From the NCBI GenBank assembly GCA_905233825.1, contig CAJOFE010000007.1, forward strand, positions 54,314 through 118,313: a stretch of 64,000 nt of DNA, in the 5' to 3' direction. Source of the stretch: an uncultured Prevotella sp. (lineage in GTDB: Bacteria > Bacteroidota > Bacteroidia > Bacteroidales > Bacteroidaceae). The position numbers were made by a program, and so were the translations under genes. Within the stretch, counting starts at the first letter, position 1, and every line of letters starts with the position of its first letter. The notes beneath the pieces were generated by a model. That model was not told where the DNA came from. It worked only from the letters and a program-made list of their open reading frames with translations, and made no database searches. Positions 30,426 through 61,899 of this stretch are shown here, one piece after another.

Positions 30426-30504
30426 GCGCGTCTAATATATTACTTTGTACACGTACAACCTATTAAGTGTGAAATCTACATACCGATATAGAACTATCGT
30501 CTTC

Positions 30505-31074
30505 ATGGCGCTTCTCTTCTTGGCGCTTAGCTCCAGGGCACAGCAGGTGGCCCTGAAGACCAACATGCTCTATGATGCAGCCCTGATTCCCAATATCGGT
30601 GTGGAAATAGACCTCGGAAAACAATGGACGGCCAGCGCCGACGGTTTCTATACCTGGCTCTCGTCAGACCACCGTCATCGTTACTGGCAAGGCTATGGTA
30701 GCTATCTCACGCTACGACACTACTTCGGCACCACCACTCCCTTCTACGGAAAGGGATCTGGAAAAGGCTCCCACCACATAGGCGCCTATGCCCTGGGGCT
30801 CACCTATGACGTGGAATGGGGAGGACGAGGCTACCAAGCCGCCCATTTCGGCTTTGGAGGAGGCGTGGAATATGGCTATGCCCTGCCCATAGGTAGCAGG
30901 CTGATGCTCGACTGCTCGATAGGTGTGGGCTTCCAGGACGGAGAATACAAGGAGTATCTGCCTATGGACGGCCATTACGTTTGGCAGGCCACTCGCAAGC
31001 GCCACTGGTTCGGACCTACGAAGGCCGAGGTGTCATTGAAGTGGCTCTTGGGAAAGAAAGGAGGTGGCCGATGA
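30505..31074 (+). CDS. DUF3575-type small outer-membrane beta-barrel protein (pilus-locus associated)
   Basis: 189 aa counted from the ATG at 30505. It has a signal peptide MALLFLALSSRAQQ. The blocks ALKTNMLYDAALIPNIGVEI...GPTKAEVSLKWL match my recollection of DUF3575. Confidence 0.72.
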   Translation: MALLFLALSSRAQQVALKTNMLYDAALIPNIGVEIDLGKQWTASADGFYTWLSSDHRHRYWQGYGSYLTLRHYFGTTTPFYGKGSGKGSHHIGAYALGLTYDVEWGGRGYQAAHFGFGGGVEYGYALPIGSRLMLDCSIGVGFQDGEYKEYLPMDGHYVWQATRKRHWFGPTKAEVSLKWLLGKKGGGR

Positions 31075-32057
31075 AGATGTTCTGCGCCATCTGCCTGCTC
31101 TGTGTCCTCTCAGCATCCTGCGAATACAAGGACCTGTGCTACGACCACAACCACTGGGCCAACGTGCGCATCGTCTTCGACTGGCAACATGCGCCAGAGG
31201 CGATGACGAAGGCAACAACGGAGACGACAGGCGCAGGCATGACTGTACTCTTCTACGACGACGAGACGGCCACCAGCCAAGAGCCTGTGCGCTACGACCT
31301 GCCAGGCCGAGAGGGAGGCAACGTGCGCCTGTTGCCAGGCACCTACCAGGCCCTGTCCTATAACTATGATACTGAGACCATCCTCTATCGAGGCATGGAA
31401 CTCGAGAATACCCTCGAGGCCTACACCCGTCTGTCGAGCATAGGCGAAGGCACCATGATGAGCCGTACGGACATGCCACGTGCCAACAATACCGAGCAAG
31501 AGCCAGTCATCCTGGAGCCAGACCCGCTATGGGCGGCCACCAGCGAGACCTTTACGGTGAACATTGGCGACGAGACACGTACCGTGACCATGCAGCCACA
31601 GACACGCGTCTGCGAGATCACCATCACCATCCACAACGTGCCCAACCTGCAATACTCCAGTCAGTTCGGAGGCGCCCTGTCAGGACTGGCACCCTCAGTA
31701 TGGATGGCATCAGGGCAGATAGGAGAAGGCACAGCCACGCAGGCATTCTCAGCCAGCGCCATAGACCAGAACACGCTGGAGATGCACTTCCGCACCTTCG
31801 GCCATTGTCCACGTAGAGGCGAGGGCATCACCAATCCCCATATACTGACCATCTACGCCATCCTTGCCGATGGCTCGAAATGGTACTACACATACGATGT
31901 GAGCCAGCAGATGCACAACCCCAAGCAGAACCCTGACGACCATCACGTCTATATTGAACTGGACGACCTGCCTGTGCCCAAGCCCATAGTCAACGGCTCC
32001 GGCTTCCAGCCCACCATCGACGGCTGGCAGGGAGTGGAGATAGAAGTAGATATGTAG
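31071..32057 (+). CDS. Lipoprotein of the type V pilus anchor / DUF5119-like class
   Basis: 328 aa with lipobox LSASC. It shares an ATGA start/stop overlap with the upstream gene. The family call rests on position and the N-terminal pattern C-x-YKDLCYD...VRIVFDW. Confidence 0.5.
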   Translation: MKMFCAICLLCVLSASCEYKDLCYDHNHWANVRIVFDWQHAPEAMTKATTETTGAGMTVLFYDDETATSQEPVRYDLPGREGGNVRLLPGTYQALSYNYDTETILYRGMELENTLEAYTRLSSIGEGTMMSRTDMPRANNTEQEPVILEPDPLWAATSETFTVNIGDETRTVTMQPQTRVCEITITIHNVPNLQYSSQFGGALSGLAPSVWMASGQIGEGTATQAFSASAIDQNTLEMHFRTFGHCPRRGEGITNPHILTIYAILADGSKWYYTYDVSQQMHNPKQNPDDHHVYIELDDLPVPKPIVNGSGFQPTIDGWQGVEIEVDM

Positions 32058-32135: not shown

Positions 32136-33335
32136 ATGAGAAAAAATCTATTTATTCTGGCTGCAGCATTAGCAGTATGCTATTCTTGCAGCAATGACGA
32201 GACCGTAGAGGTCAATCTGGGGAATGAAATCAGCTTCAGGCCCATGGTAGAGAGAACGACTCGTGCAGCAGATGTAACGGAAAACAACCTTCAGAGCTTT
32301 AATGTTACTGCTGAATTAGAAGGTGACACTCCTTCCGAATATTTTAGTGATGTGACATTTACTGCTTCTGGAACGGTAAGCGCACAGAACCCATCAACAG
32401 GTGAAACCTATACCTCTGCAACGAAGTATTACTGGCCTTCTTCAGGTAATTTAAGTTTTTACGCTTATTCGCCAATAGATGGTGCGTCAAACCAAGTGGC
32501 CATGACTGATTACAAAACGTTTGTTGTTACTCCATCAACAACCATTGCCAGCCAGGTGGACTTTGTTTACGCAGGCACAACTGGAAAAAACAAAGAGAAT
32601 AATTCTGCTGGCGTCGCACTCAATTTCCGTCATACAGGCGCTAAGATTGTATGTCAGGTAAAGAACTCCTCTACAGCACTTAAGTTTGCTGTCGATGGAT
32701 GGAAAGTGGGATACTTGTCTCCCTCTGGTAAATTCACTTATGCTGCTGAATCAACCGATACTAAGAATTCTGTAACCCTTGCTTATGGACAGTGGAGTGA
32801 TTGGGGTACGCGTTCAGTAGATACTAAGTATGAATCTGCACTTTCTCAGGCAGTAACAATCGATGCTAAAACCGTGGAAAATAATACGGATAACGAACAC
32901 GTAACGCTTTTGGCAGGTGAGATGATTCTGGTGCCACAGCGCATCACTGCAGCAACAGCTTATGCAAATAGTAGTACACCCGCTGCTAACGACCCATTGA
33001 ATGGTTCTTTCATCGCTGTTAAGCTGAAGATTATGAATAATGATGCTAGCAGTACTGTTATTGCAGCAGGTGCTTCAGATGCCACCATCTGGGCAATCTG
33101 GCCTATTGGTGATGCTGCTAATGCTCAGGCAGCAGACCAGTTTAAATGGGAGCCTGGCAAGAAGTACACCTACACCATCGACCTCGCTGGTGGTGGATAC
33201 TATGAGACCAATCAAAATGAGACGACAGTTGATGAAGATTTAGACAAAATTCTTGATGGTGCAGAGATTAAGTTTGTCAACGTGACTGTCGATGATTGGA
33301 CTGATGCTACAGGAATTGATGTTACAATGCCTTAA
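32136..33335 (+). CDS. Fimbrillin-family (Mfa-like) type V pilin lipoprotein
   Basis: 399 aa. It has a lipobox-like AVCYSC, then NEISFRPMVERTTR|A, which is the Arg-protease maturation site pattern. Confidence 0.62.
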   Translation: MRKNLFILAAALAVCYSCSNDETVEVNLGNEISFRPMVERTTRAADVTENNLQSFNVTAELEGDTPSEYFSDVTFTASGTVSAQNPSTGETYTSATKYYWPSSGNLSFYAYSPIDGASNQVAMTDYKTFVVTPSTTIASQVDFVYAGTTGKNKENNSAGVALNFRHTGAKIVCQVKNSSTALKFAVDGWKVGYLSPSGKFTYAAESTDTKNSVTLAYGQWSDWGTRSVDTKYESALSQAVTIDAKTVENNTDNEHVTLLAGEMILVPQRITAATAYANSSTPAANDPLNGSFIAVKLKIMNNDASSTVIAAGASDATIWAIWPIGDAANAQAADQFKWEPGKKYTYTIDLAGGGYYETNQNETTVDEDLDKILDGAEIKFVNVTVDDWTDATGIDVTMP

Positions 33336-33408: not shown

Positions 33409-34443
33409 ATGAAAAAGACGATGAAACAGGCGAATAACGGCTTATGGTTGTTGCTTCTGTTTGTAGCCGGGCTGCAGACGGGGTGTACTGGCGACAGCAA
33501 TAGCGACATCGCGCCCAACGACAACGAAATCATACTTAAAGCCGACGTATGGCAGATGATGGAAGGCACTCGTGCCACCTTCTACGATGCCAGTTCGCTG
33601 GCCAGTGGTGGCAGTTTCACAGCTGCAGCCTACGTGGCAGAATCCACCACCCCATATATCAACCCCACACAGGTAAACTGGAACAGCACAACAAGCAAGT
33701 GGGAGTTCGCCGACGGCAAGCACTACTGGCCAGCCTCGGGCTCGCTCGACTTCTTCGCCTATATGCCTGCCACTCCACCATCTTACATCTCAGGCCCTAC
33801 ATATACTACGGCTCGCAGTCCACAGTTCACCTGCACCTTGCCGATGACCTACGAGTCGGCTTATACAGATGAAGAGTCAGTAGCTCATGATGCATCAGGC
33901 CAGACAGATGATGTGCAGGAGTTCGTCTGGGGAATGGCTGTTGGCCAGAATAAGGCTGGGCAGGGCCAGGACGGCGTCACTATGACATTCAGGCATCCCT
34001 TTGCCCGCATCAAGTTCATGTTGTCAGCAGAACATCCTGATATCACCATCAACAGCATCACGTTTAAGGGATTGAAGAGTGGTGGCACCTGCACGTTTGA
34101 CGTCTCGAATTCCACTTCCACATGGACATCGCTGACCCCTTCGGACAATACTACCGATTTCGTGATGACCTTGCATGGCACAGAGGCTGAGTTCACGAAG
34201 AATACTGAGTCAGCAACGCCAGCCAGGCCAATAGGCCCAGAAATCATCATGGTTCCCCAGACCTTTGCTGGCGACATCGAGGTAAACGCCACCTGGATAG
34301 ACTGGGGCGAACAGTTCGCACATAACGTCAGCACCAAGCTGTCTTCCGTCACCTGGCAGGCAGGCAACAGCTATACCTATACCTTCACCATCACAGAGAC
34401 AGACCTGAGGGTAGATACTGAAAAATTCACAGAGCAATGGTAA
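33409..34443 (+). CDS. Fimbrillin-family (Mfa-like) type V pilin lipoprotein, second paralog
   Basis: 344 aa with lipobox LQTGC, then IILKADVWQMMEGTR|A. Confidence 0.58.
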   Translation: MKKTMKQANNGLWLLLLFVAGLQTGCTGDSNSDIAPNDNEIILKADVWQMMEGTRATFYDASSLASGGSFTAAAYVAESTTPYINPTQVNWNSTTSKWEFADGKHYWPASGSLDFFAYMPATPPSYISGPTYTTARSPQFTCTLPMTYESAYTDEESVAHDASGQTDDVQEFVWGMAVGQNKAGQGQDGVTMTFRHPFARIKFMLSAEHPDITINSITFKGLKSGGTCTFDVSNSTSTWTSLTPSDNTTDFVMTLHGTEAEFTKNTESATPARPIGPEIIMVPQTFAGDIEVNATWIDWGEQFAHNVSTKLSSVTWQAGNSYTYTFTITETDLRVDTEKFTEQW

Positions 34444-37400
34444 CTATAAAACGAAACATATACATATCATTCCTAACAATGCTCCTGCTGATGGTGGGAG
34501 GCGCAAATCAGGCGTGGGCATACAAGGTGACATACCATATACTGACGATGCCGTTCACGACAGAAGACAAAAACGGAGAACAGGGTTACAAACCCACCAC
34601 CAACCCCAATCGACAGAACATCCGTGTGGAAGCTTTCTACGTTGAAGTCGAAGAGACTTCGCCAACCGTTGGACTTCCCTCGCAATACATCAGTCCACTG
34701 GCCCACAAGTTCAGATATTATGAAGGTACTACTACAAGCGAAAGTGGCAAGGTTTCTACGAGTGCGTCAAGAGTGCAGATTTATGAATACAATAATACCA
34801 CCTACTACACCTATACGATCAATGGCACAACTAATAATGCTAACGTTTCTGGTGCTGACGACTATCCTACTGGCTATCAGGAGGATCCTACACTCTTGGA
34901 CTCATATACAGGTCCCTTGTTGAAACCTGGTAGTGCCATTACAGAGGATTGCCATATCTACGTCACTTACGAATATAATGCTGCGAACACCGTTCTCGAC
35001 CTGACAGGTAACAAAAGCTACAACATCAGGTTAGGTGACCGTTTTCTTGCTTTTAACAAAACACGTGCCAATCGTCCTGCTGCCATTCTTGAAAACAATG
35101 TAACGGAAGAAAACCTCAATAGCAATGACTTCACTTATGTAGCTACTCCTGGATTCAATAGCAACCAGCACCACTGGTTCCATTTCCGTTTCAAGTTTAA
35201 AGGTCCCGAGCCTAATACACACGACCCTTACAACATCACCATCCTCACAGCCTACGAGGGCGATGAAACATTTTTCTCGGACACTAATAAGAATTTGGGT
35301 GAAAAGACGATTGTGCGGAAAACGTACAAAGACAGTCATCTCTTCTGTAAGGGCCATGATAAAGGTAGCAATAACATGTGGTTGTCGAGTGATTACGACA
35401 TGCAGTTCACCCAAACTAACAAAGATGGTCCAGTGACCTGGATATCTCAACCTGGCTATTATCGTGGCGGTGTAAACAATACTAGCGAGATGAGCCCCAT
35501 CTGGAACTCGTTTGCCATCCTGCCTGCTGCTGGTGGTGGTAGTGGCTACGTATTTATGGGCACAAAAATCAACGGCAACGGCAACAACTGGCAGCCAAAA
35601 AATGGTCAGTATTTCTTCCTGACAGGAAACGTCGAAAATGGTAACAACCCGAAATTACAATTAAAGACGCACAGCGGTGCTGAGTCAACCCCTGAAGAGC
35701 CCTACGAAGTGCGCACATACACCTATAAGGTAAAAACGCCACTATCGGACACCCCATTAGAGGCCACCATCGATATGACAGAATTTAAAGGTTCTGCCAC
35801 GTTGCTTACTCACGTTCCCGACAAACTAAAGCGCAAATATGTTACATTTACGGGAGCTTATAAATCAGAGTTATATACAGATGCAAATGCCATCACTACG
35901 TTTGATGATGCCGAAGCCAGTGGACGCGTAATCTGGCTAACGTATGAGTCGTCGGAAATGCCTTTCGAGACGCTTCCTAAAGACGGCAGTTATGAGGATG
36001 CCCGCTGGTACACCATACGTATGAATGGTGGTACGGAGAACAAGAATTTAGCCTATCACAATACAAACAACTTCATTACGGCAAATGGCAGTGGCACGCC
36101 CAAAGGCAGTAATAGTGATTTGCATCAGGGCGAGAACTCGGCTGAAGCAATGGTTGCCTTTATCGGCGACCCCTTCGAACTGAAGATTATCAGTCGTAAA
36201 GCCAGTGAGACAGACAATGCCAACCGCTATATCGGTTGTGCCACAGATGCAGCTAACAATACAACGCTTAATACCAACAAGACTGGTTCTTCCGACATCA
36301 GTAGTTGGGAGATTGTAGCTGATAATGAAGATGGCTCAATGGTACTGCGCCAAATGGGTACATACGATTCGCCTAAGTATATTGGCTGGAACTCTGGCGC
36401 TACCAACAAGCCTGTTGTCTATAGCACAAGTGCCTACACTACTGCCAACCGTATCAAGGTGGTGGCGTTGGACCAGAAAAAGTATCTCTATCATATTGTT
36501 CGGAGCGATGGTTCTATTGCAGTAGAGGCCAGCACCATGCAGGATGTAGGTCAGCCCCTGAACAAATACACCCATATTCCGGAAATCATACGTACGCCGT
36601 TCCTCAATCCGGCTCTTGGCTATTTACCCACCATCTCCTTCTATTATACAAAAACAAATGCTGATGCGTCATCCTCTGCTCAAAACCATGCACCGTATGA
36701 GCAGGAAGCTGGTACTTCTGATGGGGTTTTTGCTAATATCTACGTGCGATATAGTTTTGGCAGAGCCTTACCATCAAAAAACTATAATGTCCGACTGAAC
36801 CGTGAGTACATCTATTATGATTCCTCAAATGAAGATGCTTCGAAAATCAGTTCTCAGACTTCAGACCCCCCATCATCTGAAAGTGATGATCCAAATAAGG
36901 ACAATTACTCATGGTATCTGGACTTGTCTGATCCTTATGCCATGACTATCAAGAATGTGGGATACGACGTAAACGGCAAATATGTGAATGTATCATCATG
37001 GACAGATGGGGCTGTATTAGATTGGAGTGATGACACACCGTCTAAGTTCGTTGTAAAAAGCAGTACATCGCCAGGCGTATATGAAGTGATGGCTGCAACA
37101 GGAGAGGGTGTGAATGCCGCCACTACCTACTATAACATCGGACGCAATACGGCCAACACCGTAAGAATGTACAGCAACAGCACATACCATCATGGTGATG
37201 ACCAATTGCGCTTTGTGCTTACTGAAACAAATGCCACACCAGTTGATTACCACTTGATAGACAAAGAGAATCATGAACTGATGGTGGTAAGGAGCCGACG
37301 AAGCGACTTGACCTTCCCTGCCGACTATCACAGCCCGTTGGTAGAGACGTATCACTACTGGACAGACCGTGCTTGCAGTGTGGCAGTGAGTAACTGGGGA

Positions 37401-40400
37401 GATCAAGAACATGAAAATTTAACTCCTATAGAAGGTGTCAAACATATTTACGTTACTTATGACACCAGCAATCGTATAAATCTGAGAAAGGGCGCTTTGT
37501 ATCTACTCAAATTTAGGAATGGCGACAGCTTCCGTCAGGAGAACGGTGCTGACGGACTGACGACTAATGCCGTGCCAGCCGTTTATCCCTATTGCAACGG
37601 TGACTGCAACTTCTTTATCTATGGCGAAGACGAGTATGAACTGCAACAACATGGTGCTGCCAGTACCCGTACCCGCTGGGCATGGTATTTAGAGAGTACC
37701 AACAACGATCCCTACCACGTGAAGATATGTTCACGACAAGAGGAAACCTACAATACCTATCAGCGCCAAGCCTACTTCTATACCTTTGTTAAAGACTGGG
37801 GAGAGGGCGACAAGGTGGTTACGAGTTTAGCATGGCCAGGCATTACTGGCGTGCAGGGAACAGAGTATATGGTATTGGGGTCTGTAGGACAATACCAGTT
37901 GGTAACTTCTCCCGTTGATAAGAATGGCGATGGCGATTACGATGATGCTGATGAACGAGTGTACCATACGGTAAAGTCGTTCGAGCAATATTGGAAGACC
38001 TACGACACTATCAAAAATAAACTGCTGAAAGACATTCTGGAGGATGATGATAAGGGGACCAATCCTGAGGGTTCCTCGACAGTTCCTACTGATCCTGTAG
38101 CTTACAGAGAATTGCTGACAGACACGTACGGTTTCCATAGCTATCCCTACTATGCTTACGCCAAACGTTTCAACGGCTATAATAGTGAAGGTAAGGCCAG
38201 CAAAGGATGGGAAGAAATAGAACACTGGTATCAGACCGTTAACATGGGCGAGGGATACTTCGACTTCGTGCCAACTGTTATCGCTCCCGTGCTCATCCTG
38301 CTCGACCAGCATGGCTGGGAGATCATGCGTAAGCCTCTGCCCAGCGGGCCAGATGATAAGGAGAAGACTCAAAAGTATAAAGCTATTATGCAATATAACA
38401 GCCCGATGGTGAAGGAATATTCCTTCTGGGCTGGTGCGAAGAAGCGTACTGGCTTCCATCAGTATTACGATTTGAGCAAGCGTGTGGGTGGCGATGATTT
38501 CACGTCAAGTAGTTTGGACAATCTACCACCGTATGGTTCTGCCAACGTGCTCGATGCAAAGGGGAACCTGCAAGACCAGTATGTCACCTACACCGTGAAG
38601 GAAGAGTATGTACAGAGTTACAGCTACGATGCCACTACAGGTATTGGTACTGGCCAGCCGTTCCTCATCCAGCAAGGCGAGAGTTTTGCCTTTACGGGTG
38701 GTTCTGCAATTGCTACCTATACCGTGCCATCATCCGGCGGCATGTCAAAATGGATTGTTGAAAATATCAGTGCCCCGATAGATAACGGCTATCTCTGGTA
38801 TCTGAAGCCAAATGTCAACATTGACACTGAAATGGGTTATGGCGGCTATGCCCATGACTGGGTCAACGACTATGATGACAAAGACAAGGTCAAGACCTCG
38901 GGTTTCAACTCATGGGCTTTTGACCCCTATAACATCCAGATATCGAGTGCTGCAGATCCTTCCAGGTATTTTGTTACTAATGCTACTGGGGCCACTTTGG
39001 AAGAAGGAGATGGAGCCATCTTGGGCACGTATGCGAATGATGACAATCCAGCAATATCATTAGGAGCACAAAGAACAAATGTAAGGGGCACATGGTATGA
39101 CAGTCGTACGCTCTATGTCACTAATGCAACCTTCATGGCAGTGCAGGATGCAGATGGCAACATGCAACTAATGCCACGCTTTGACCAGTCGCGACGTATC
39201 AGGAGTTTTAGTACGTTGGTCACACCGACGGCTGATGCTGGCGACCCCACCAAACTGACGCAAACACATACGAAAATTTATCGTCCGATTGTCTATAACT
39301 ACCACATCATCGACAATGCTGGTAATGAGTCATTGCGCTACAAGAGTGGTGGTGACCTCGTACCACAGACCCCAGATCACTTCAAGAGCCCACTGGCGAA
39401 AGACTTCACCTATTACAAGACGCTGACAGATGGAGTCGTTTCTGACGAAATAACTGAGTCTCTCGCAGGTGTTGGGTTAAACTCTACAGCTGCCGCTGGC
39501 AACGATGTCTATGTGCGCTATGCCTACGATGAACATGCAGATGTCATGGACATTCTGAAAGGCAAGTGGTTTACCATGAAGTTGAACACAAAGGATACCA
39601 AGTACGACGACGGCATCAAACAGGGAACCAGCAAGCCAGCTGTAATCGACGGTGATGATAAGGAGTGGCAGTGGAAGTTTTTAGAGACGCCGCTGAGCGA
39701 CCCTGACCCTTATGCTGTTCAATTGTTCAACCGCGATTATAACGAGACGAGACAAAACGAGCCCTTACTAAATACCCGCTTTGCCTTGCTGTCGCATGCC
39801 AGCGATGGCTATGCCTTGGCAAAAGCAGGAAGGGGCGATTATACCTATCAGTTCCTTAACGGCAGTGGAATGAACGCCTCTACGCCTGCCACTATAGCAG
39901 AAGACAAAGATGGCAGTAACGCTTCTGGTTTTACGAGCACTTCATGCACTTTCCATGGTACAGACTCGCAAATAGAACTGTTCGACGATGTGCTTCACAC
40001 CTATATTTATAAGGTATATACTTACGACAATGTTCCAGCCATAGAGGCCGAGCAGTCACAGGGTGAAGCCTTAGACAATGAACTTATCCCCGTACTGCCT
40101 GATGCCGCAAAGTCACCGCTACTAAACATGGAAGACTTCCGTTATTATTATAATAACGATATGTTTACCAGCGGAGCTATTGTGACTGTGACAGAACCAA
40201 TACATGAACAGTTCCCTGAATTGGCAGTAGGTCAGGTCATTCCCGACACGATAGGCAAGCAACTTAAATATATATATGGCCTGTACGATGACGTGATTCA
40301 CGTACACTACATGCCCTATAATCCCAATAACTCCAGCTATCTTGTACCCAATGTCAAGGGTATAGAAGATGGGCATGTAGCTCGTGGCTCTGGCTCACAC

Positions 40401-43400
40401 GATGCAGCATTAGGACTTGATGGCAACCTGCTTTATAACATCATTTGGTATAATGACAACATGATGTTTAAGGATGGAAATGACGTCAAAGGAAAGCAGG
40501 GACAGGTCTTGACAGCCACACCAACCTCATACGTGTGGACATTAGAAGGCAACGACCCCTACGCCATCAAGATTAAAAACTATGATGGCACTAACGATTA
40601 CATTAACAGTAGTGGTGGAATATCATCTGAAGCCCAGACGTTCATGCTGATTCCTTGGGAAGGCTATGGATATGGCGTATTGGCTAAGACTGGAGATAAA
40701 ACCAAAAAGCTGACGATGGATACTGATGATAGCGTCTCTACAACAGATGAGTCGGTCAGCGTTGCAACAACTAATAGCCCTACGAAGTTTATCTTCTTCG
40801 GATTGGCTACCCATAAGTTGATTTATCACTTGGTGATTGCAAAGACCTATTATGATGATGCCGAGAGTCACGGAGCAGACGAGACAGAAACTATTCCTTA
40901 TTGGAATGGAACTGAAATCACAAACATACCCATCAAGGGTTCTACCCAGCGCGATCTGACATCGGATAATGGCGGTGAGGGGGCACTGCCTGGTGAGAAG
41001 TACCAACTTGGTTCTACTATTAACGGCCAGACCTACTCCTACGATGCCGGAATCATCAGTTTGGGTGACAAGTTAGAAGTTCCTTCGGTATTCTATCGTC
41101 CTAACGTTGTCTATCAATACTTCGTGGAGGGGGTATATGACGATGAAACCTGTACATCACGCACCATAGACATGAATACCAAGTATAAAGGACGTGAAGT
41201 GACGAATTTGGGTGATGACCCTGGCTTGCTAAATAAGACTGTGCGCATTAACATCGTTTACAGTTTCAATGGTAGTCTTGAAACGAATGCTGGTGCAGAC
41301 TTCGTGAGAAGCGTGGATCAAAACAAATGGTACACCTTTGAGGCGAAAAAGGCTGATGGCACACCGCAACTGATGCAATTCACCAATGCGTGGGGCATGG
41401 AGGTAAAGGAAGGACGAGGTACCCACTATACCAACGACTACCTGTGGACTCCCCTCGGCGACCCCTACGGCTTCGTGATGTATCACCGCTATACTTGTGT
41501 GAATAGTGGTACTGATAATACAGGTGAGCCAGATCGAGTGATGACAACAGCTGGTTTTTCGGAAGGGCGAGAGGTTTGGATGGATGATGGCTCCGGGACT
41601 GGTGCTAATAGGGTTTCTAATGCAACAGATGCTAAAACCGCAGCTGCTAATTCTATCTATGAACTGCTTGCTGATGAAGGAACCGAGCCTGGTTACTTCA
41701 AGATTCATCCTGTTGCTAACAATTCGGGCACACAGTATTATTTGAAGATTGTTCATGATAAAGAATCCCCTTCTTCGGAAGTATGGCATGACTATGTGAG
41801 GCTCAGTGCAACGGGGCATACTGAATTTACATATGGACTGACAGAGGAACTGTTGAAACCCTACTACGACCGTGCTGGTTATGTGGGCGGACTGACGGCG
41901 GCAGGCAAGACGGCCTATGAAGCTGCCAATGGTAACCTGATGACCCTACAGAGCGTAGTCTACGACCCTCGCAATATCGTCAAGTATGAGCCTGGCTACT
42001 ACCGTCTACACTCACCAGAGGACATTGAGGTTGACGGAACACCTCTCTTGCCCGTGCGCTATGCCAGCGGCTATACGCACAAGATTGAGCTTGATCCCGA
42101 TGGGAACGGAGACAATGTCGATGCCCTCCCCATGCACTTCTATGAGGTAGAGGGAGCATCGTCGGCCTTCAACTTGTTGAAGAGCAAAGACGGCGTAAGT
42201 AGAGATGTGGGCTATACTCCGTCACATGCAACACAAGGCGACATACCCATCCCGGCCGTGGAATACGACCCCGCGAGCATCTTCTATTTCTATGAGGGTT
42301 CCGCTGATTATCCAATATCACGAATCCAGACACAAGGACTCTATCTCAAAGGAAGCAAGGGGCCAGGTGCCACAGAGGATGTCGATGAGAGAGCAAAAGT
42401 CATCATGATAGATACGGAGAATCCAGCAACTAACGCTACTCCTTTGTATGTGATGGATATCGGTGGCGCTATCCTGTTGATACACGACAATCAAACCGAC
42501 AATAGTCGAGTAAATCTGAAATATCTTAGTTACGACCAGAATGATCCCGACCATATCTACGACCTCAAGTTGACGCATAATACCCATACAGACCACGCGA
42601 AGTGGCTGATGCAGCCTGCTAATCACTTAGGACTGCGTGTCACCACCCACAGTGGCGGCGACGGCGGCACGTATGGTGGTACCACTTACAACTATACCAC
42701 ATTCTATGCACCGTTTGATGCCTTGCTGCCTGACACAGTTATGAAGGATGGACAAATTGAAACAATATACCATGCAGTTGTTCTTGAAACAGCGAACTCG
42801 CCATGGAGTCCACCAAATGACTTGCATCCCAAGTCTATCGGACGTTATAACATTGCAGACAATGGTTTAACCTCACTTAAAGATGGTGAACGTGAACTCT
42901 GTCTCACCAACGACAGGTTCATACCTGCAGGAACGCCAGTACTCATTGCTATGCATGATAATGCCGGATACGTCAAGTTAACACTACCCAACTCATCGCC
43001 ACATCCCATGCATTCAACTTTCACAGCAGACACACGACGGAAACCTGGCGATGAAAATAAGGATACTAAAGGAGAACGTACCAACATCCTCACCGGTCAA
43101 TACCTGGAGCAGAAGTTGTCTCTCAGTTCAACAGAGAGAATTTATGCATTCGGACTGCCATATAGTGGCACTATGACGCTTGACAAATCAACGGGCTATA
43201 TCACAGCAACACTGCCGTTGCAGGACAATTCTGGTATGGGATTCTACCTTAATGCCAACCCTGATAAAGAATTAGGTCTATCACGTGGCGACTGGTTGCG
43301 TAACAACTGGTACGTATATAATAATAAGGCATACTACCATGCCACAGGAGTCAACCCATCTCGTGAAAAACCTGGTATTGACTTTATTCCCGTCATCTTC

Positions 43401-43580
43401 GATGATGAAGATGAAGAACCTGGTATAGAGGAGAATGGTGGAACAGCCGACTATCCAACGGGCATCTACGACCTGCTGGGCCGCAAGGTAGCGACGGAGC
43501 AGCAGGTGAAGGACGGGACGTGGCACGAACGGCTGGCTCCTGGCATCTATATCATGAACGGGAAGAAGTTCAGCTGGTAA
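34437..43580 (+). CDS. Giant (3,047 aa) secreted repeat protein with a T9SS type-A C-terminal sorting domain; candidate pilus-associated adhesin
   Basis: An uninterrupted 9.1-kb ORF overlapping the upstream stop (ATGGTAA). It has a Sec signal ...GGANQAWA|Y, about 8 two-part repeats, and the C-terminus GIYDLLGRKV...LAPGIYIMNGKKFSW. Confidence 0.85.
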   Translation: MVTIKRNIYISFLTMLLLMVGGANQAWAYKVTYHILTMPFTTEDKNGEQGYKPTTNPNRQNIRVEAFYVEVEETSPTVGLPSQYISPLAHKFRYYEGTTTSESGKVSTSASRVQIYEYNNTTYYTYTINGTTNNANVSGADDYPTGYQEDPTLLDSYTGPLLKPGSAITEDCHIYVTYEYNAANTVLDLTGNKSYNIRLGDRFLAFNKTRANRPAAILENNVTEENLNSNDFTYVATPGFNSNQHHWFHFRFKFKGPEPNTHDPYNITILTAYEGDETFFSDTNKNLGEKTIVRKTYKDSHLFCKGHDKGSNNMWLSSDYDMQFTQTNKDGPVTWISQPGYYRGGVNNTSEMSPIWNSFAILPAAGGGSGYVFMGTKINGNGNNWQPKNGQYFFLTGNVENGNNPKLQLKTHSGAESTPEEPYEVRTYTYKVKTPLSDTPLEATIDMTEFKGSATLLTHVPDKLKRKYVTFTGAYKSELYTDANAITTFDDAEASGRVIWLTYESSEMPFETLPKDGSYEDARWYTIRMNGGTENKNLAYHNTNNFITANGSGTPKGSNSDLHQGENSAEAMVAFIGDPFELKIISRKASETDNANRYIGCATDAANNTTLNTNKTGSSDISSWEIVADNEDGSMVLRQMGTYDSPKYIGWNSGATNKPVVYSTSAYTTANRIKVVALDQKKYLYHIVRSDGSIAVEASTMQDVGQPLNKYTHIPEIIRTPFLNPALGYLPTISFYYTKTNADASSSAQNHAPYEQEAGTSDGVFANIYVRYSFGRALPSKNYNVRLNREYIYYDSSNEDASKISSQTSDPPSSESDDPNKDNYSWYLDLSDPYAMTIKNVGYDVNGKYVNVSSWTDGAVLDWSDDTPSKFVVKSSTSPGVYEVMAATGEGVNAATTYYNIGRNTANTVRMYSNSTYHHGDDQLRFVLTETNATPVDYHLIDKENHELMVVRSRRSDLTFPADYHSPLVETYHYWTDRACSVAVSNWGDQEHENLTPIEGVKHIYVTYDTSNRINLRKGALYLLKFRNGDSFRQENGADGLTTNAVPAVYPYCNGDCNFFIYGEDEYELQQHGAASTRTRWAWYLESTNNDPYHVKICSRQEETYNTYQRQAYFYTFVKDWGEGDKVVTSLAWPGITGVQGTEYMVLGSVGQYQLVTSPVDKNGDGDYDDADERVYHTVKSFEQYWKTYDTIKNKLLKDILEDDDKGTNPEGSSTVPTDPVAYRELLTDTYGFHSYPYYAYAKRFNGYNSEGKASKGWEEIEHWYQTVNMGEGYFDFVPTVIAPVLILLDQHGWEIMRKPLPSGPDDKEKTQKYKAIMQYNSPMVKEYSFWAGAKKRTGFHQYYDLSKRVGGDDFTSSSLDNLPPYGSANVLDAKGNLQDQYVTYTVKEEYVQSYSYDATTGIGTGQPFLIQQGESFAFTGGSAIATYTVPSSGGMSKWIVENISAPIDNGYLWYLKPNVNIDTEMGYGGYAHDWVNDYDDKDKVKTSGFNSWAFDPYNIQISSAADPSRYFVTNATGATLEEGDGAILGTYANDDNPAISLGAQRTNVRGTWYDSRTLYVTNATFMAVQDADGNMQLMPRFDQSRRIRSFSTLVTPTADAGDPTKLTQTHTKIYRPIVYNYHIIDNAGNESLRYKSGGDLVPQTPDHFKSPLAKDFTYYKTLTDGVVSDEITESLAGVGLNSTAAAGNDVYVRYAYDEHADVMDILKGKWFTMKLNTKDTKYDDGIKQGTSKPAVIDGDDKEWQWKFLETPLSDPDPYAVQLFNRDYNETRQNEPLLNTRFALLSHASDGYALAKAGRGDYTYQFLNGSGMNASTPATIAEDKDGSNASGFTSTSCTFHGTDSQIELFDDVLHTYIYKVYTYDNVPAIEAEQSQGEALDNELIPVLPDAAKSPLLNMEDFRYYYNNDMFTSGAIVTVTEPIHEQFPELAVGQVIPDTIGKQLKYIYGLYDDVIHVHYMPYNPNNSSYLVPNVKGIEDGHVARGSGSHDAALGLDGNLLYNIIWYNDNMMFKDGNDVKGKQGQVLTATPTSYVWTLEGNDPYAIKIKNYDGTNDYINSSGGISSEAQTFMLIPWEGYGYGVLAKTGDKTKKLTMDTDDSVSTTDESVSVATTNSPTKFIFFGLATHKLIYHLVIAKTYYDDAESHGADETETIPYWNGTEITNIPIKGSTQRDLTSDNGGEGALPGEKYQLGSTINGQTYSYDAGIISLGDKLEVPSVFYRPNVVYQYFVEGVYDDETCTSRTIDMNTKYKGREVTNLGDDPGLLNKTVRINIVYSFNGSLETNAGADFVRSVDQNKWYTFEAKKADGTPQLMQFTNAWGMEVKEGRGTHYTNDYLWTPLGDPYGFVMYHRYTCVNSGTDNTGEPDRVMTTAGFSEGREVWMDDGSGTGANRVSNATDAKTAAANSIYELLADEGTEPGYFKIHPVANNSGTQYYLKIVHDKESPSSEVWHDYVRLSATGHTEFTYGLTEELLKPYYDRAGYVGGLTAAGKTAYEAANGNLMTLQSVVYDPRNIVKYEPGYYRLHSPEDIEVDGTPLLPVRYASGYTHKIELDPDGNGDNVDALPMHFYEVEGASSAFNLLKSKDGVSRDVGYTPSHATQGDIPIPAVEYDPASIFYFYEGSADYPISRIQTQGLYLKGSKGPGATEDVDERAKVIMIDTENPATNATPLYVMDIGGAILLIHDNQTDNSRVNLKYLSYDQNDPDHIYDLKLTHNTHTDHAKWLMQPANHLGLRVTTHSGGDGGTYGGTTYNYTTFYAPFDALLPDTVMKDGQIETIYHAVVLETANSPWSPPNDLHPKSIGRYNIADNGLTSLKDGERELCLTNDRFIPAGTPVLIAMHDNAGYVKLTLPNSSPHPMHSTFTADTRRKPGDENKDTKGERTNILTGQYLEQKLSLSSTERIYAFGLPYSGTMTLDKSTGYITATLPLQDNSGMGFYLNANPDKELGLSRGDWLRNNWYVYNNKAYYHATGVNPSREKPGIDFIPVIFDDEDEEPGIEENGGTADYPTGIYDLLGRKVATEQQVKDGTWHERLAPGIYIMNGKKFSW

Positions 43581-43668: not shown

Positions 43669-45396
43669 TTACTCTGCGGCGACCTCAGGCTCAGCAGCAC
43701 GGAAGCTGGCGAGATTCTCTACCTGGAACAATTTGATGTAGGACATCTTGCCAATGATGTTCTCCTCGGCCATGCGGACATAGACGTTGGCGCTCTTCTC
43801 GAAGAGTTCAGGAGCCTTGGTAGCATCGCGGAGGATGAGCAATGACATCACGAGTTCGGCAGTCATGTCATACAGACGACGGGCAAGGAAGTCCTGAGCT
43901 TCCTGATTCTCGAGAGCCTTTACGTAGGCGAGCGTCTCCTCGTAAACAGGAATCAGCAAACCAATACGGTTCTTCAGTCCCTGCAGACTGTCCTTCACCT
44001 CCAGACCTTCGTACATGTCCTTGATGTTCTGCAACATTGTGCCGTTGGTAATGTAACGAATAGCAGCTACTACCTGCAGCTGGGTGGTACCCTCGTAGAT
44101 AGAGAAGATACGGGCATCGCGGAACAGACGCTGGCTCTTGTACTCCATGATGAAGCCAGAGCCACCGTGGATAGAGATGGCGTCGTAGGCGTTCTGGTTG
44201 GCGTACTCGGAGTTCATACCCTTGGCGAGCGGTGTGAAGGCATCAGCCAGACGCTGATACTTCTTCAGTTCCTGCTTCTCCTCGGGCGTGAGTTTGCGGT
44301 CGCGCTCGATATCTTCCAGACACTTGTAGATATCGACGTAGCAAGCGGTTTCATAAAGAAGTGCACGACCGGCATCGAGCTTGGCCTTCATGCGAGAGAG
44401 CATATCATAGACAGCGGGGAAGTTGATAATCTTATCGCCAAACTGCTGACGCTCCTTGGCATAAGCCAATCCCTCGTTGTAAGCCTCCTGCTCCACACCA
44501 ACGCTCTGTGCGGCGATACCCAGACGGGCACCGTTCATCAGGGCCATCACGTACTTGATCAGACCAAGACGGGTGCTGCCACAGAGTTCTGCCTTGGCGT
44601 TCTTATAGGTGAGCTCACAAGTGGGTGAACCGTGGATACCCAGTTTGTGCTCGATGTGACGTACATCAACACCTCCTTGGCGCTTATCGTAGATGAACAT
44701 CGACAGACCACGGCCGTCCTTGGTGCCCTCCTCAGAGCGGGCCAGCACGAGGTGGATGTCGCTATCACCATTGGTGATGAAGCGCTTCACACCATTCAGG
44801 CGCCAGCAGTTCTCCTTCTCATCGAAGGTGGCCTTCAGCATTACGCGCTGCAGGTCAGAGCCAGCATCAGGCTCAGTCAGGTCCATACTCATACCCTCGC
44901 CAGCACAAACGCGAGGGATATACTTCTGGCGCTGCTCCTCAGAACCGAACTCATAGAGGGTGTCGATACAACTCTGCAGGCTCCAGATGTTCTGGAAACC
45001 GGCATCGGCAGCCGAAATCATCTCAGACAACATAGAGAACACAGCGTTAGGCAGGTTCAGGCCACCGTAACGACGGGGCATAGAAACACCCCACAGGCCA
45101 GCCTTACGGGTGGCATCGAGGTTCTCGTAGGTCTTTGAGGCGTAGATCATACGGCCGTTCTCGAGGTGCGGACCTTCCAGATCGACGCTCTCAGAGTTTG
45201 GCTCGATGATATTGGCAGCCACGTCGCCGGTGATGTCGAGAATCTGCTTGTAGTTCTCGATGGCATCGCCCAGATCGACAGGGGCGTAGTCATATTCTTT
45301 CGCATCAGCGAAACCCTTTTCTTTCAGCTCAACGATACGAGCCATCAGGGGGTGGTTCAAGTAGAACCCGATCTCAGGATATCCAAGTTTATCCAT
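43669..45396 (-). CDS. Acyl-CoA dehydrogenase (long form, ~575 aa)
   Basis: It shows ACAD blocks (MDLTEPDAGSD, RFITNG, GIHGSPTCEL, YEGTTQLQ) and lies downstream of etfBA. Confidence 0.88.
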   Translation of the reverse strand: MDKLGYPEIGFYLNHPLMARIVELKEKGFADAKEYDYAPVDLGDAIENYKQILDITGDVAANIIEPNSESVDLEGPHLENGRMIYASKTYENLDATRKAGLWGVSMPRRYGGLNLPNAVFSMLSEMISAADAGFQNIWSLQSCIDTLYEFGSEEQRQKYIPRVCAGEGMSMDLTEPDAGSDLQRVMLKATFDEKENCWRLNGVKRFITNGDSDIHLVLARSEEGTKDGRGLSMFIYDKRQGGVDVRHIEHKLGIHGSPTCELTYKNAKAELCGSTRLGLIKYVMALMNGARLGIAAQSVGVEQEAYNEGLAYAKERQQFGDKIINFPAVYDMLSRMKAKLDAGRALLYETACYVDIYKCLEDIERDRKLTPEEKQELKKYQRLADAFTPLAKGMNSEYANQNAYDAISIHGGSGFIMEYKSQRLFRDARIFSIYEGTTQLQVVAAIRYITNGTMLQNIKDMYEGLEVKDSLQGLKNRIGLLIPVYEETLAYVKALENQEAQDFLARRLYDMTAELVMSLLILRDATKAPELFEKSANVYVRMAEENIIGKMSYIKLFQVENLASFRAAEPEVAAE

Positions 45397-45542
45397 ACCC
45401 TGTAGAAAGCAATGGAGAAATAGATTGCAATCACCTCATTGAGGACTCTTCTCCATGTTGCCTTATTCGGGTCGAGCGACAGCCAAACGGACGCGACGAC
45501 GAGAGCTGCATACAGAAGTAGGAATAGAACTTGTTTCTTCAT
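45357..45542 (-). CDS. Candidate small membrane protein (61 aa) filling the etfA-acd spacer
   Basis: The ATG is 3 nt after the etfA stop. The N-terminus is hydrophobic (MKKQVLFLLLYAALVVASVWL). The region has coding-like GC content, unlike other spacers. It overlaps the acd start by 40 nt. Confidence 0.3.
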   Translation of the reverse strand: MKKQVLFLLLYAALVVASVWLSLDPNKATWRRVLNEVIAIYFSIAFYRVWINLDILRSGST

Positions 45543-45544
45543 TT

Positions 45545-46567
45545 TTACTTCGAGTTCTGCTTATAATACTTGATCAGTTTCGGCACGACTTCTTCAACGG
45601 TGCCAACGATGACGTAGTCAGCGATACGGTTGATAGGTGCATCGGAATCGCTGTTCACAGAGATGATGATACCAGAGTCCTGCATACCAGCGATGTGTTG
45701 AATCTGGCCAGAGATACCGCAGGCGATATACACCTTGGGGTGAACGGTGACACCCGTCTGACCAATCTGACGGTCATGGTCGAGCCAGCCTGCATCGACG
45801 GCAGCGCGGCTTCCACCAACCTCACCATGAAGCACCTTTGCCAACTGGAACAGCATGTCGAAGTTCTCCTTCGAACCCATACCGTAACCACCGGCAACCA
45901 CGATAGGCGCACCCTTCAGGTTATGCTTGGCAGCCTCCACGTGGTGGTCGAGCACCTTCACGACGAAAGCCTCGGGGCTGACATACTTGCTGACCTCGGG
46001 ATAAACCACCTCCTTACGGCACTCACCCTCGTAGATAGCCTTCTGCATCACGCCAGAGCGGACGGTAGCCATCTGGGGACGGTGGTCGGGGTTCACGATG
46101 GTAGCAACGATGTTACCACCGAAGGCGGGACGAATCTGATAGAGCAGATTGTCGTAGTGCTTACCGCTTTTGTTATCGTCATAGGGACCAATCTCCAACT
46201 CTGTACAGTCAGCAGTCAGACCAGAGGTCAGAGATGACGATACACGTGGACCGAGGTCGCGACCAATGACGGTAGCACCCATCAGACAGATCTGAGGTTG
46301 CTCTTCCTTGAAGAGGTTCACGAGGATATCGGTGTGGGGAGCGGAAGTGTAAGGGAACAGGTCCTTGCCGTCGAACACAAACAGCTTGTCAACACCGTAG
46401 GGTAGAATCTGATCCTCCACCTTGCCCTTGATGCCTGTACCAGCAACAACGGCGTGGAGCTCCACACCTAATGTATTGGCGAGTTTGCGACCCTTGGTCA
46501 GGAGTTCCTGGGAAACTTCTTGCACTTGTGTGCCTTCTATTTCGCAATATACAAATACATTGTTCAT
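45545..46567 (-). CDS. etfA: Electron transfer flavoprotein alpha subunit
   Basis: 340 aa counted from the ATG at 46567 (MNNVFVYCEIEG). The tracked TTG start at 46579 is an alternative. An FAD-binding C-terminus is present (YIACGISGQIQH). Confidence 0.9.
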   Translation of the reverse strand: MNNVFVYCEIEGTQVQEVSQELLTKGRKLANTLGVELHAVVAGTGIKGKVEDQILPYGVDKLFVFDGKDLFPYTSAPHTDILVNLFKEEQPQICLMGATVIGRDLGPRVSSSLTSGLTADCTELEIGPYDDNKSGKHYDNLLYQIRPAFGGNIVATIVNPDHRPQMATVRSGVMQKAIYEGECRKEVVYPEVSKYVSPEAFVVKVLDHHVEAAKHNLKGAPIVVAGGYGMGSKENFDMLFQLAKVLHGEVGGSRAAVDAGWLDHDRQIGQTGVTVHPKVYIACGISGQIQHIAGMQDSGIIISVNSDSDAPINRIADYVIVGTVEEVVPKLIKYYKQNSK

Positions 46568-46571
46568 AATC

Positions 46572-47444
46572 TTATCCAATAATCTTTTCTTCCAGTAACT
46601 CTTTGATCATTCCCTCGATATCAGCATCAGAAGCCGTCAAAGTCTTCGACTCCTTAGCCTGGAACACGATGTTCTTGATAGCTTTCACCTTTGTGGGCGA
46701 ACCGGCCAGACCACACTGGTTCACGTCGCCGTTCACATCAGCTACGCTCCACTGATTCAGGTTCAGCTCAGGGCGCTCGTCGTACAGATAGTCGTAGGGC
46801 GTGCCTTCGGCAGGACGCTCCATCGGGCAGGTAGCGCGCTTGTACTTCATCACCAGCTTGGCGTTCTGGGGGCGACAAGGAGCAGCACTTCCATTAACGG
46901 TAATCACTACTGGAAGCGGAGCCTCAACCGTCTCCACACCACCGTCGATGACACGCTTGATGGTAGCCTTGCCGTCCTTGACGTCAAGTACTTCCTCAGC
47001 GTAAGTCACCTGATTAAGACCTAACTTCTGAGCTACCTGAGGACCTACCTGAGCGGTATCACCATCGATAGCCTGACGACCACCGATTACGATATCGACA
47101 TCGCCAATCTTCTTGATGGCAGTAGCCAATGCGTAAGAAGTAGCGAGGGTATCAGCACCAGCGAAGAGACGGTCAGTAAGCAACCAGCCTGTATCAGCAC
47201 CACGATAAAGTCCCTGACGGATAATCTCACCTGCACGTGGAGGACCCATCGTGAGGATTCCTACTGTAGAGCCCGGATTCTGCTCCTTCAAACGAAGGGC
47301 CTGCTCCAAGGCGTTCAAATCTTCTGGATTGAAGATAGCGGGTAGGGCAGCACGGTTCACAGTGCCTTCGGCAGTCATAGCATCCTTACCCACATTTCTG
47401 GTGTCTGGCACTTGCTTGGCCAGCACAACAATTTTTAATGCCAT
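46572..47444 (-). CDS. etfB: Electron transfer flavoprotein beta subunit
   Basis: 290 aa. It begins MALKIVVLAKQVPDT, a typical EtfB N-terminus. Confidence 0.9.
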   Translation of the reverse strand: MALKIVVLAKQVPDTRNVGKDAMTAEGTVNRAALPAIFNPEDLNALEQALRLKEQNPGSTVGILTMGPPRAGEIIRQGLYRGADTGWLLTDRLFAGADTLATSYALATAIKKIGDVDIVIGGRQAIDGDTAQVGPQVAQKLGLNQVTYAEEVLDVKDGKATIKRVIDGGVETVEAPLPVVITVNGSAAPCRPQNAKLVMKYKRATCPMERPAEGTPYDYLYDERPELNLNQWSVADVNGDVNQCGLAGSPTKVKAIKNIVFQAKESKTLTASDADIEGMIKELLEEKIIG

Positions 47445-50600: not shown

Positions 50601-50668
50601 AACGTACCATGTTAAAACATGCCAAGCCTGGTTTATATATCATCAACGGAAAGAAAATCATTAAATAA
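47663..50668 (+). CDS. Secreted M60-like (enhancin-like gluzincin) peptidase with N-terminal lectin-like region and T9SS C-terminal sorting domain
   Basis: 1,001 aa with a signal peptide. HEIGHNHQG...E is at nt 49604-49618 and following. The C-terminus is GSIYSISGQRT...PGLYIINGKKIIK. Confidence 0.78.
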   Translation: MKRLLLYLSLFIFHLSFCPIGALAQDFDTGLVRLKSKRTTWYLSTETSEAATTTAKNVAKLGQVWILEVYGDGYYLRSANTGEYLQTDYTKTGTGKTRLYIRKSPNATGTAKFWNISSKSDFSGSSFLNTNTSHALFSYSMDEGCDWYIEAETNFTEEEIMARLQELSPFTNELKDGAYYRLHSIYSRVLTEGSDLSTKEPDDTNYSQYWQLHHSDRGWSLQTVITQKYILRQTQTSTPYHLGATQVFFNVNATGDKWDTCWTISYGTDWGGLHDAQSQGHNVVYWDYTAEASAWHLEEVELDEAMLEQMRQQQADYDALVKDKATFQQHLNNLFEDQACTTLKADIQTLSDDALAQNEDFVALTTDMQAMVLKVKNDTWQQFTNQTTGYSACYERFFRIADYQSYSNHQTMANASNFTMSTSFGRLSNPTGIVANPGDIVYVYVDASPKTGATLMMEAVSTDGVAGDHPTGETTTLKAGLNLLRYSEQKMLYVFYQVTDPKKKLDAYPDITIHIEGGQLQGYWDATRNMTNADWKLLQQDLLKACPVLNLKTPHLVFCMDADLVKKAEPNEMEGLMRIWDRIVENEERYMGVEDFEGRYRNVWNAFSGASSYMHSTTYGTWYDESTIPTIMNYKKMTQPGNLWGPSHEIGHNHQGSINVIGTTESSNNMFSNINTFEQGIITSRRQLPVDVFYELAKGTRWLERNIWQTTGLFYQLYLYFHVQKHDEQFLPNLFRALRKSPINKSSGKGSTDYLHLAKKICDVAQADLSELFEAYGMFVPGNNIYVSDYAEYNVTTTQADIDAARKYMQQYDHKLGNIMFIDDHIEPMKPADPNNIFEGVPAITNGLKKNNLDQHNEVAEYKNLPIGEAGDYELFTDDAPDVVDDYYSLSANGRSITFHGTNYAGHKFYDAEGNLVWATNARNVSLPQAVLNMGINTITIMTAMYNMKDVLCTDQEPDGIDNLTPSPTGEGSIYSISGQRTMLKHAKPGLYIINGKKIIK

Positions 50669-61860: not shown

Positions 61861-61899
61861 AAGGTAAAAAGTTAAAAAGTAAAAGGTAAATAAACAGAA

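Follow-up and report, generated by a model that had tools for sequence, protein, structure and literature searches.

What kind of protein is a 3047-residue product encoded at the end of a pilus-type gene cluster, and is its apparent internal repetition real? The question is raised by a 64,000-nucleotide stretch of DNA from an uncultured Prevotella sp. (assembly GCA_905233825.1, contig CAJOFE010000007.1, positions 54,314 to 118,313; hereafter the window), in which one open reading frame at 34437–43580 on the forward strand encodes this giant protein. A preliminary description, made from the letters alone, had proposed that the protein consists of about eight copies of a two-part super-repeat; its conversion of residue to nucleotide number, 34437+3*(aa-1), is right for this reading frame. 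Our analysis shows that the protein contains a real, ancient, eight-fold two-domain super-repeat and belongs to an uncharacterised family of giant proteins of rumen Bacteroidales. It further suggests, with a probability of about 0.6, that the protein is a Mfa5-like, pilus-associated multivalent adhesin of a rumen Prevotellaceae bacterium, exported by a type IX secretion system (T9SS).

The repeat was described from four motifs that recur in the same order: a strand Y-x-Y-[HK]-[ILV] (motif a), a segment with SP[LMF] (motif b) and a closing strand [IV][YHW][VL][TRH]Y (motif c) in a first module, here module A, and DP[YF]-x-[hyd]-x-[hyd], where hyd is a hydrophobic residue (motif d), in a second, module B. 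Every instance quoted in that description was found at the residue given for it. Compared with 500 shuffles of the giant protein, motif d is far more frequent than expected (8 observed, 0.09 expected), as are motif c (6 versus 0.05) and motif a (4 versus 0.16), while SP[LMF] occurs 5 times against an expectation of 1.2. In an alignment of 43 full-length homologs, which share 47–69% identity with the giant protein, all eight DP[YF] triplets are invariant, one per module B. Most SP[LM] motifs are invariant as well, including S86-P87-L88, S966-P967-L968, S1322-P1323 and S1651.

Self-BLAST of the whole protein returned the diagonal only, and single-sequence BLAST of 250-residue tiles gave weak internal matches (best E ~1e-3), so the repeat must be very old. 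We then compared all pairs of 120-residue slices of the homolog alignment with hhalign. Among 1128 non-adjacent pairs, 65 reached a probability of at least 50% and 19 of at least 90% (best E 4e-13). All 65 join like module segments, each of motifs b, c and d pairing only with its own kind, and none touches the last 640 residues (aa 2408–3047). Comparison of whole units gave the same picture, with the strongest alignment between units 3 and 7 (99%, E 7.5e-18, 185 columns), followed by units 1 and 6 (98%), 3 and 6 (97.5%), 4 and 6 (97%), 6 and 7 (96.8%), 2 and 3 (95.4%), and 1 with both 4 and 7 (95.3%). The lower end of the range is formed by units 2 and 8 (81%) and units 4 and 5 (61%).

A hidden Markov model (HMM) seeded solely with orthologs of unit 6 and iterated over the 43 proteins converged on exactly eight copies of module B, with independent E values of 3e-9 to 1e-39, and on six significant copies of module A, those of units 1 and 3 to 7. 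The module A of unit 2 was recovered by profile-profile comparison only (57–95%) and is probably real. For unit 8, support for module A comes from partial matches (the alignment of units 2 and 8, and a match of tile 867–943 to 2065–2135) together with conserved a and c strands. Eight copies are thus well established for module B, whereas for module A the proposed number was slightly generous.

All eight units lie on the forward strand, and the boundaries of module B given here are those of the HMM. Unit 1 (34515–35426) combines a module A with a long insert (aa 27–182, detected by the HMM at aa 61–182) with a module B at aa 188–330 (DPY 263). Unit 2 (35715–36449) has a diverged module A at aa 427–504, in which the SPL motif is missing, and a module B at aa 518–671 (DPF 578), and unit 3 (36477–37214) has its modules at aa 681–773 and aa 780–926 (DPY 832). 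Unit 4 (37242–38024; module A aa 936–1011, module B aa 1053–1196, DPY 1091) belongs to the region of the protein that is best conserved. It is followed by unit 5 (38283–39101), whose module A has a weak first strand and begins at aa 1283 or, in the HMM match, at aa 1310, ending at aa 1390, with module B at aa 1449–1555 (DPY 1496). Unit 6 (39285–39992; module A aa 1617–1699, module B aa 1701–1852, DPY 1757) is the unit that we modelled. In unit 7 (39996–40769) the modules occupy aa 1854–1962 and aa 1989–2111 (DPY 2040), and unit 8 (40815–41657) pairs a very diverged module A region at aa 2127–2279 with a module B at aa 2291–2407 (DPY 2342).

At the DNA level, no tandem repeats were found in the 9.1-kb gene. 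The sole dispersed nucleotide repeat is a 21-nucleotide stretch coding for D-P-[YF]-x-h-x-h (h, hydrophobic), present in six of the eight copies at 76–81% identity (35222–41479), which shows that this motif is strongly constrained. Every unit resembles its ortholog far more than it does any of its paralogs, and the eight units are kept position for position in the 43 orthologs. An assembly artefact or a recent duplication is therefore ruled out, and the repeat is, as had been proposed, an old internal amplification whose copies have diverged at the DNA level.

The units do not map onto known Pfam domains, including the Listeria-Bacteroides repeat and ricin B domains considered in the preliminary description. 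Scans with Pfam-A and NCBIfam gave no usable match on the giant protein, on eight homologs taken in full or on 45 A modules taken singly, and for the A modules no Pfam family matched consistently even at E<=10. Neither Ricin_B_lectin (PF00652) nor RicinB_lectin_2 (PF14200) was found on the giant protein (E<=1) or on five homologs (E<=0.01–0.1); in three further homologs scanned at E<=10, a single ricin-type match was seen in one, at 10.3 bits (E 1.2) against a cut-off of 25.6. The Listeria-Bacteroides repeat family Flg_new (PF09479) matched none of the 45 module A sequences at E<=10 and was not found on the whole giant protein. No von Willebrand factor A or immunoglobulin-like Pfam domain, and no Mfa_like or FimA match, was detected on the giant protein either. 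Two sub-threshold matches in the E<=1 scan, to DUF3575 (E 0.021) and to Pur_DNA_glyco, were discarded as noise, and PF26689, which a precomputed listing gives for a few homologs, was not reproduced even at E<=10. Sequence searches of the PDB with the unit 6 profile, a pooled module A profile, the C-terminal 640 residues and aa 1001–1388 returned chance matches only.

We used AlphaFold2 to predict the structure of unit 6 (aa 1612–1856, 24 orthologous sequences). The model has two domains, in agreement with the two-part unit, and is of good quality (predicted local distance difference test, pLDDT, 89.9; predicted template modelling score, pTM, 0.88). Its N-terminal domain, module A, consists of five strands with a 3-residue helical turn alone between strands 2 and 3, and its C-terminal domain, module B, of about 12 strands; the core of module A spans ~80 residues and module B ~120–150. 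The model supports a beta-grasp fold that is almost free of helix for module A and a beta-trefoil fold for module B. In a Foldseek search of the PDB, beta-trefoils lead the matches to unit 6, with HA17 (2e4m_C, 3win_C and 4lo8) at a template modelling (TM) score to target of 0.55–0.59, and include the Macrolepiota ricin-B-like lectin MPL (4ion), FGF7, clitocypin, cocaprin and HA33. The N-terminal domain matched ubiquitin-like folds (NLE1-UBL, LC3 and the axin DIX domain), and a library of viral structures returned baculovirus FGFs, a ricin B domain and ubiquitin. The top Foldseek matches of module B are all trefoils, so the "lectin / beta-trefoil flavour" earlier attributed to this module is borne out at the level of the predicted fold. 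Both predicted folds are familiar, while the sequence families of modules A and B and their alternating architecture are absent from current databases.

The closest comparison for module A is the Listeria-Bacteroides repeat. The InlB B-repeat is a beta-grasp that lacks the usual helix between strands beta2 and beta3 (PMC8900821), and this repeat is a small helix-less beta-grasp of 70–90 residues found in tandem in surface proteins, a description that module A would also fit according to its model. By eye, the first strand, the P...aromatic hairpin and the closing x-Y-[AV]-x-[WY] strand are alike. The InlB B-repeat structures are absent from the best 50 Foldseek matches listed for unit 6. Because there is no Flg_new match, no PDB chain was found with the pooled A profile and the Foldseek matches to ubiquitin-like domains are weak (E>1), we treat the resemblance as a lead and not as membership.

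For module B, the likeness to botulinum HA17 and HA33, ricin-B-type lectins (CBM13, MPL, SSA) and FGF lies in the predicted fold (TM to target 0.55–0.70). Module B differs from these known trefoils in sequence, with 7–14% identity and its own signature, W-x-W...DP[YF]-x-h-x-h. Trefoils also occur in tandem elsewhere, two in HA33 and four in fascin and in MTX holotoxin, but in the giant protein a beta-grasp domain stands between every two trefoils.

Not all of the giant protein belongs to the repeat. The most conserved part of the whole protein is aa 1001–1400 (37437–38636), where the mean frequency of the top residue among the 43 homologs is 0.7–0.8. Within it, between the trefoil of unit 4 and module A of unit 5, lies an extra conserved segment at aa 1197–1282 (38025–38282, forward strand), which continues to about aa 1309 (38363). 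It is rich in W, Y and H (GFHSY...WAYAKR.NGYN...KGWE.IEHWYQTVNMGEGYFDF), and profile comparison found no match between aa 1197–1309 and either module. This stretch of aa 1001–1400, chiefly aa 1197–1309, may be a functional or docking core. Beyond unit 8 lies a non-repeat C-terminal region of ~580 residues (aa 2408–2985; 41658–43391, forward strand) with an invariant EYDPASIF motif at aa 2609–2616. A ninth module B near the invariant D2611-P2612 was considered and dropped, as the profiles gave no support for it. In a low-confidence model of aa 2126–3047, Foldseek matched HA17 at TM 0.65–0.70 and HA33 at E 1e-6, with the two- and four-trefoil proteins HA33, MTX holotoxin, the IP3 receptor N-terminus and fascin spanning E 1e-6 to 8e-4. 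Sequence profiles detected no trefoil-like domains past unit 8; the model is a hint that one or more, invisible to such profiles, may be present there. The protein ends with an acidic low-complexity linker (~aa 2986–3009, FDDEDEEPGIEENGG...; 43392–43463, forward strand), variable in length and sequence between homologs, and a C-terminal tail (aa 3010–3047; 43464–43577, forward strand) that resembles a T9SS type A sorting domain.

A protein search returned 328 relatives. Of the best 120, all unnamed, nearly every one is of full length (2700–3180 residues, 41–99% identity). An exhaustive hmmsearch with the unit 6 profile against 1.84 billion representative proteins (E<=1e-3) found 129 proteins only, mostly giant, at 2.7–6.7 thousand amino acids (kaa); the shorter entries among them are probably fragments. 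Members of the 3-kaa class consistently have eight B modules and six A modules visible to the HMM. A second size class of 4100–6707 residues (P0129–P0208) has 8–15 trefoil (B) modules and 3–13 copies of module A. The rise in B copy number from 8 in the 3-kaa class to as many as 15 in the larger relatives would fit an extensible stalk or an adhesin array. A C-terminal tail of ~100 residues is common to nearly all complete members of both classes. In species-representative genomes, we found 28 loci, nearly all in metagenome-assembled genomes from the ruminant gut assigned to Prevotellaceae, Prevotella, Paludibacteraceae or Bacteroidales. One comes from an isolate, Prevotella sp. tc2-28.

The genes upstream of the giant gene, all on the forward strand, encode a DUF3575 protein (30445–31074, the first of the cluster), a DUF5119 lipoprotein (31071–32057; best solved relative 5cag_A, an uncharacterized protein, E 4e-6) and two fimbrillin-like lipoproteins of the Mfa_like_1 family (32136–33335 and 33409–34443). 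The ATG of the giant gene and the stop codon of the second Mfa-like gene overlap (ATGGTAA); the giant gene comes last in a type V (Mfa-like) pilus cluster and is translationally coupled. NCBIfam left the four upstream genes without a name, and a literature search on the giant family, or on DUF3575 and DUF5119 in pilus biology, found nothing relevant.

The linkage is conserved. In 23 of the 27 loci with upstream sequence, an ortholog of the second Mfa-like gene precedes the giant gene by at most ~1.7 kb, mostly in direct adjacency, and DUF3575 and/or DUF5119 genes are present in 11 loci, where the upstream sequence extends far enough. The wider neighbourhoods of these loci are unrelated to each other. 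Genes of the Mfa_like_1 type also adjoin the relatives of 5.9–6.5 kaa, but downstream. At one such locus (L034), a gene for a 6517-residue protein is followed by three Mfa_like_1-type genes, the inverse of the order in the window, and at another (L005), the giant relative is followed by a gene for a 670-residue protein with a faint Mfa_like_1 match. In a Paludibacteraceae metagenome-assembled genome, a gene for a 247-residue protein with weak matches to 23S_rRNA_IVP and Zn_ribbon_Top1 interrupts the cluster between its Mfa-like genes (L003, 6175–6918; L004, 3944–4687).

The two ends of the giant protein may point to an export route of its own. The DUF5119 protein and the two Mfa-like proteins carry the lipoprotein type of signal peptide that type V pilins also have, whereas the giant protein does not. 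As read from the sequence, it begins with a hydrophobic Sec signal (aa 1–28, ...GGANQAWA/YKV; 34437–34520, forward strand), MVTIKRNIYISFLTMLLLMVGGANQAWA|Y, with putative cleavage after AWA. This signal contains no Cys and hence no lipobox, and would therefore be of the signal-peptidase-I type, unlike those of the neighbouring pilin-like lipoproteins. With no lipobox Cys and no match to a fimbrillin family, the giant protein does not appear to be a canonical type V pilin. At the other end, the C-termini of 25 of 26 homologs match the T9SS type A sorting domain model TIGR04183 (best E 2.9e-5). SprA/Sov, the outer-membrane translocon of the T9SS, is encoded ~22 kb upstream of the giant gene on the same contig (4324–12033, reverse strand; 2569 residues; PF14349, E 8e-228), showing that the organism has a T9SS.

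This combination has a precedent in Mfa5 of Porphyromonas gingivalis, an ancillary protein at the tip of the type V Mfa1 fimbria that uses an N-terminal Sec signal peptide and a T9SS C-terminal domain (CTD) in place of the lipoprotein route of the pilins (PMC7835359). Like Mfa5 (PDB 6tnj and 6to1), the giant protein is encoded by a large gene that closes a type V pilus cluster, carries a Sec signal that lacks the pilin lipobox together with a C-terminal tail that resembles a T9SS-type sorting signal at a sub-threshold score, and would be an adhesive accessory, not a polymerising pilin. The two differ in their building blocks: Mfa5 has von Willebrand factor A and IgG-like domains with an isopeptide bond, domains for which the giant protein shows no Pfam match, whereas the giant protein is ~2.5 times longer and consists of eight beta-grasp and beta-trefoil units. 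By analogy, export of the giant protein would use Sec first and the T9SS second, and the protein would be displayed on or beside an Mfa-like pilus or anchor. Eight lectin-type trefoils spaced by beta-grasp domains would then make up a long multivalent adhesin, which may target plant or microbial glycans, or partner proteins.

A number of results weigh against a role as an exported, pilus-associated adhesin. In four of the 27 related loci, no upstream Mfa-like gene is detectable. TIGR04183 has a cut-off of 23 bits, and aa 3010–3041 of the giant protein score 17.2–20.5 bits, depending on the fragment scanned, over model positions 25–57 of 72. No lectin Pfam family matches module B, nor does module B have the (QxW)3 symmetry of ricin-type lectins, as the three leaves of unit 6 align with an hhalign probability below 1%. 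Module B, which shows neither three-fold symmetry in its sequence nor a ricin-type Pfam match, is not a classical (QxW)3 lectin. For a good model, unit 6 gives weak Foldseek E values (0.02–0.1 for trefoils and >1 for beta-grasps), and the AlphaFold2 model of aa 2126–3047 (12 sequences) is poor, with a pLDDT of 58. Finally, HA17, the best structural match of module B, is a protein adaptor in the botulinum HA (hemagglutinin) complex and is not known as a sugar binder.

We therefore considered other roles for the giant protein. It could be a T9SS cargo that acts outside any pilus, with the operon linkage reflecting co-regulation or a dedicated anchor or chaperone and not a filament tip. A signal of the signal-peptidase-I type with no lipobox means that the protein cannot be a canonical type V pilin; the CTD-like tail and the presence of SprA are also expected of such a cargo, and the downstream position of the Mfa-like genes in the larger relatives indicates that gene order is not fixed. 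However, the cluster has the full layout of a type V pilus locus (DUF3575, DUF5119 and two fimbrillin-like lipoproteins), the adjacency is conserved amid otherwise unrelated neighbourhoods, and Mfa5 is an example of a T9SS cargo that is a pilus component. We consider a cargo unconnected with a pilus unlikely.

A second alternative concerns the repeat itself. The eight units could amount largely to a passive stalk, a rigid spacer of beads-on-a-string form whose trefoils bind nothing, and the functional part that it projects would be the C-terminal region or the conserved aa 1001–1400. Copy number varies from 8 to 15 across relatives while the C-terminal tail stays constant, the units are more variable between orthologs than aa 1001–1400, and module B has no lectin sequence signature, all of which would suit a spacer. 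However, the best conserved stretch, from module B of unit 4 to module A of unit 5, lies inside the array and not at its end. Furthermore, orthologs retain, unit by unit, invariant surface residues specific to that unit, which goes beyond a spacer's needs. A mainly passive stalk is doubtful on these grounds. The last alternative, that the trefoils are protein-binding or inhibitory modules (HA17-like adaptors, or protease inhibitors of the Kunitz or clitocypin type) and the giant protein a scaffold or multi-headed inhibitor, draws on the presence of HA17, clitocypin, cocaprin, macrocypin and Kunitz inhibitors among the top Foldseek matches, but is improbable because these matches share the fold alone (7–14% identity, E 0.02–1), the lectin trefoils MPL, HA33, SSA, RSA and PPL score equally, and a 3047-residue protein in a pilus operon would be an odd format for an inhibitor.

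A pilus-associated adhesin can also be set beside the giant T9SS adhesins of the SprB/RemA type. SprB has a type B CTD and uses the gliding machinery. The giant protein differs from SprB in its repeat folds, its linkage to type V pilin-like genes and its type A-like tail. What it has in common with the SprB/RemA-type proteins of Flavobacterium, to which an adhesin role is ascribed (PMC8986121), is a length of several thousand residues, a repetitive sequence with a variable number of repeats and a place on the Bacteroidota surface, the T9SS export of the giant protein being a prediction. By these analogies, the giant protein would belong with the giant repetitive surface adhesins and Mfa5-like pilus accessories, with binding as a predicted property only. 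We tentatively go one step further and raise the possibility, which we hold with less confidence than the adhesin role itself, that the A-B units form a "lectin chain" of a new class, associated with type V pili, exported by the T9SS and built from two undescribed domain families. Such a chain would be a fibre of tens of nanometres carrying 8–15 individually specialised trefoil sites spaced by beta-grasps, found only in Prevotellaceae/Bacteroidales of the ruminant gut, for attachment to plant cell-wall polysaccharides or partner microbes.

Other genes of the window lie downstream of the giant gene. Directly after it, on the reverse strand, is a cluster with acyl-CoA dehydrogenase and electron-transfer flavoprotein alpha and beta genes (43669–47444; butyryl-CoA dehydrogenase/Etf-type), with which the pilus-like operon is bounded. 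On the forward strand, a few kb downstream from the giant gene, follow genes for a 1001-residue peptidase of the M60 (enhancin-like) family (47663–50668), for which NCBIfam likewise had no name, and for a protein with two GDSL esterase domains (50678–52360). Both proteins are candidate enzymes for the degradation of glycoproteins or plant polymers. Towards its far end, the window encodes a SusC-like TonB-dependent receptor paired with a SusD-like protein (58543–63570, forward strand), the core of a polysaccharide utilisation locus.

Prevotellaceae dominate the rumen, but little is understood of the means by which they adhere to feed particles and other microbes. A family of proteins of at least 330 kDa that is almost confined to ruminant-gut Bacteroidales, is linked to a pilus operon and has predicted lectin-type folds is a testable candidate for such attachment. 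It also provides a second case, structurally unrelated to Mfa5, of a T9SS-type cargo encoded within a type V pilus cluster, which bears on the open question of how T9SS cargos join pili. Finally, with modules A and B defined as domain families, ~130 giant-protein clusters, at present "hypothetical" throughout, would gain an annotation.

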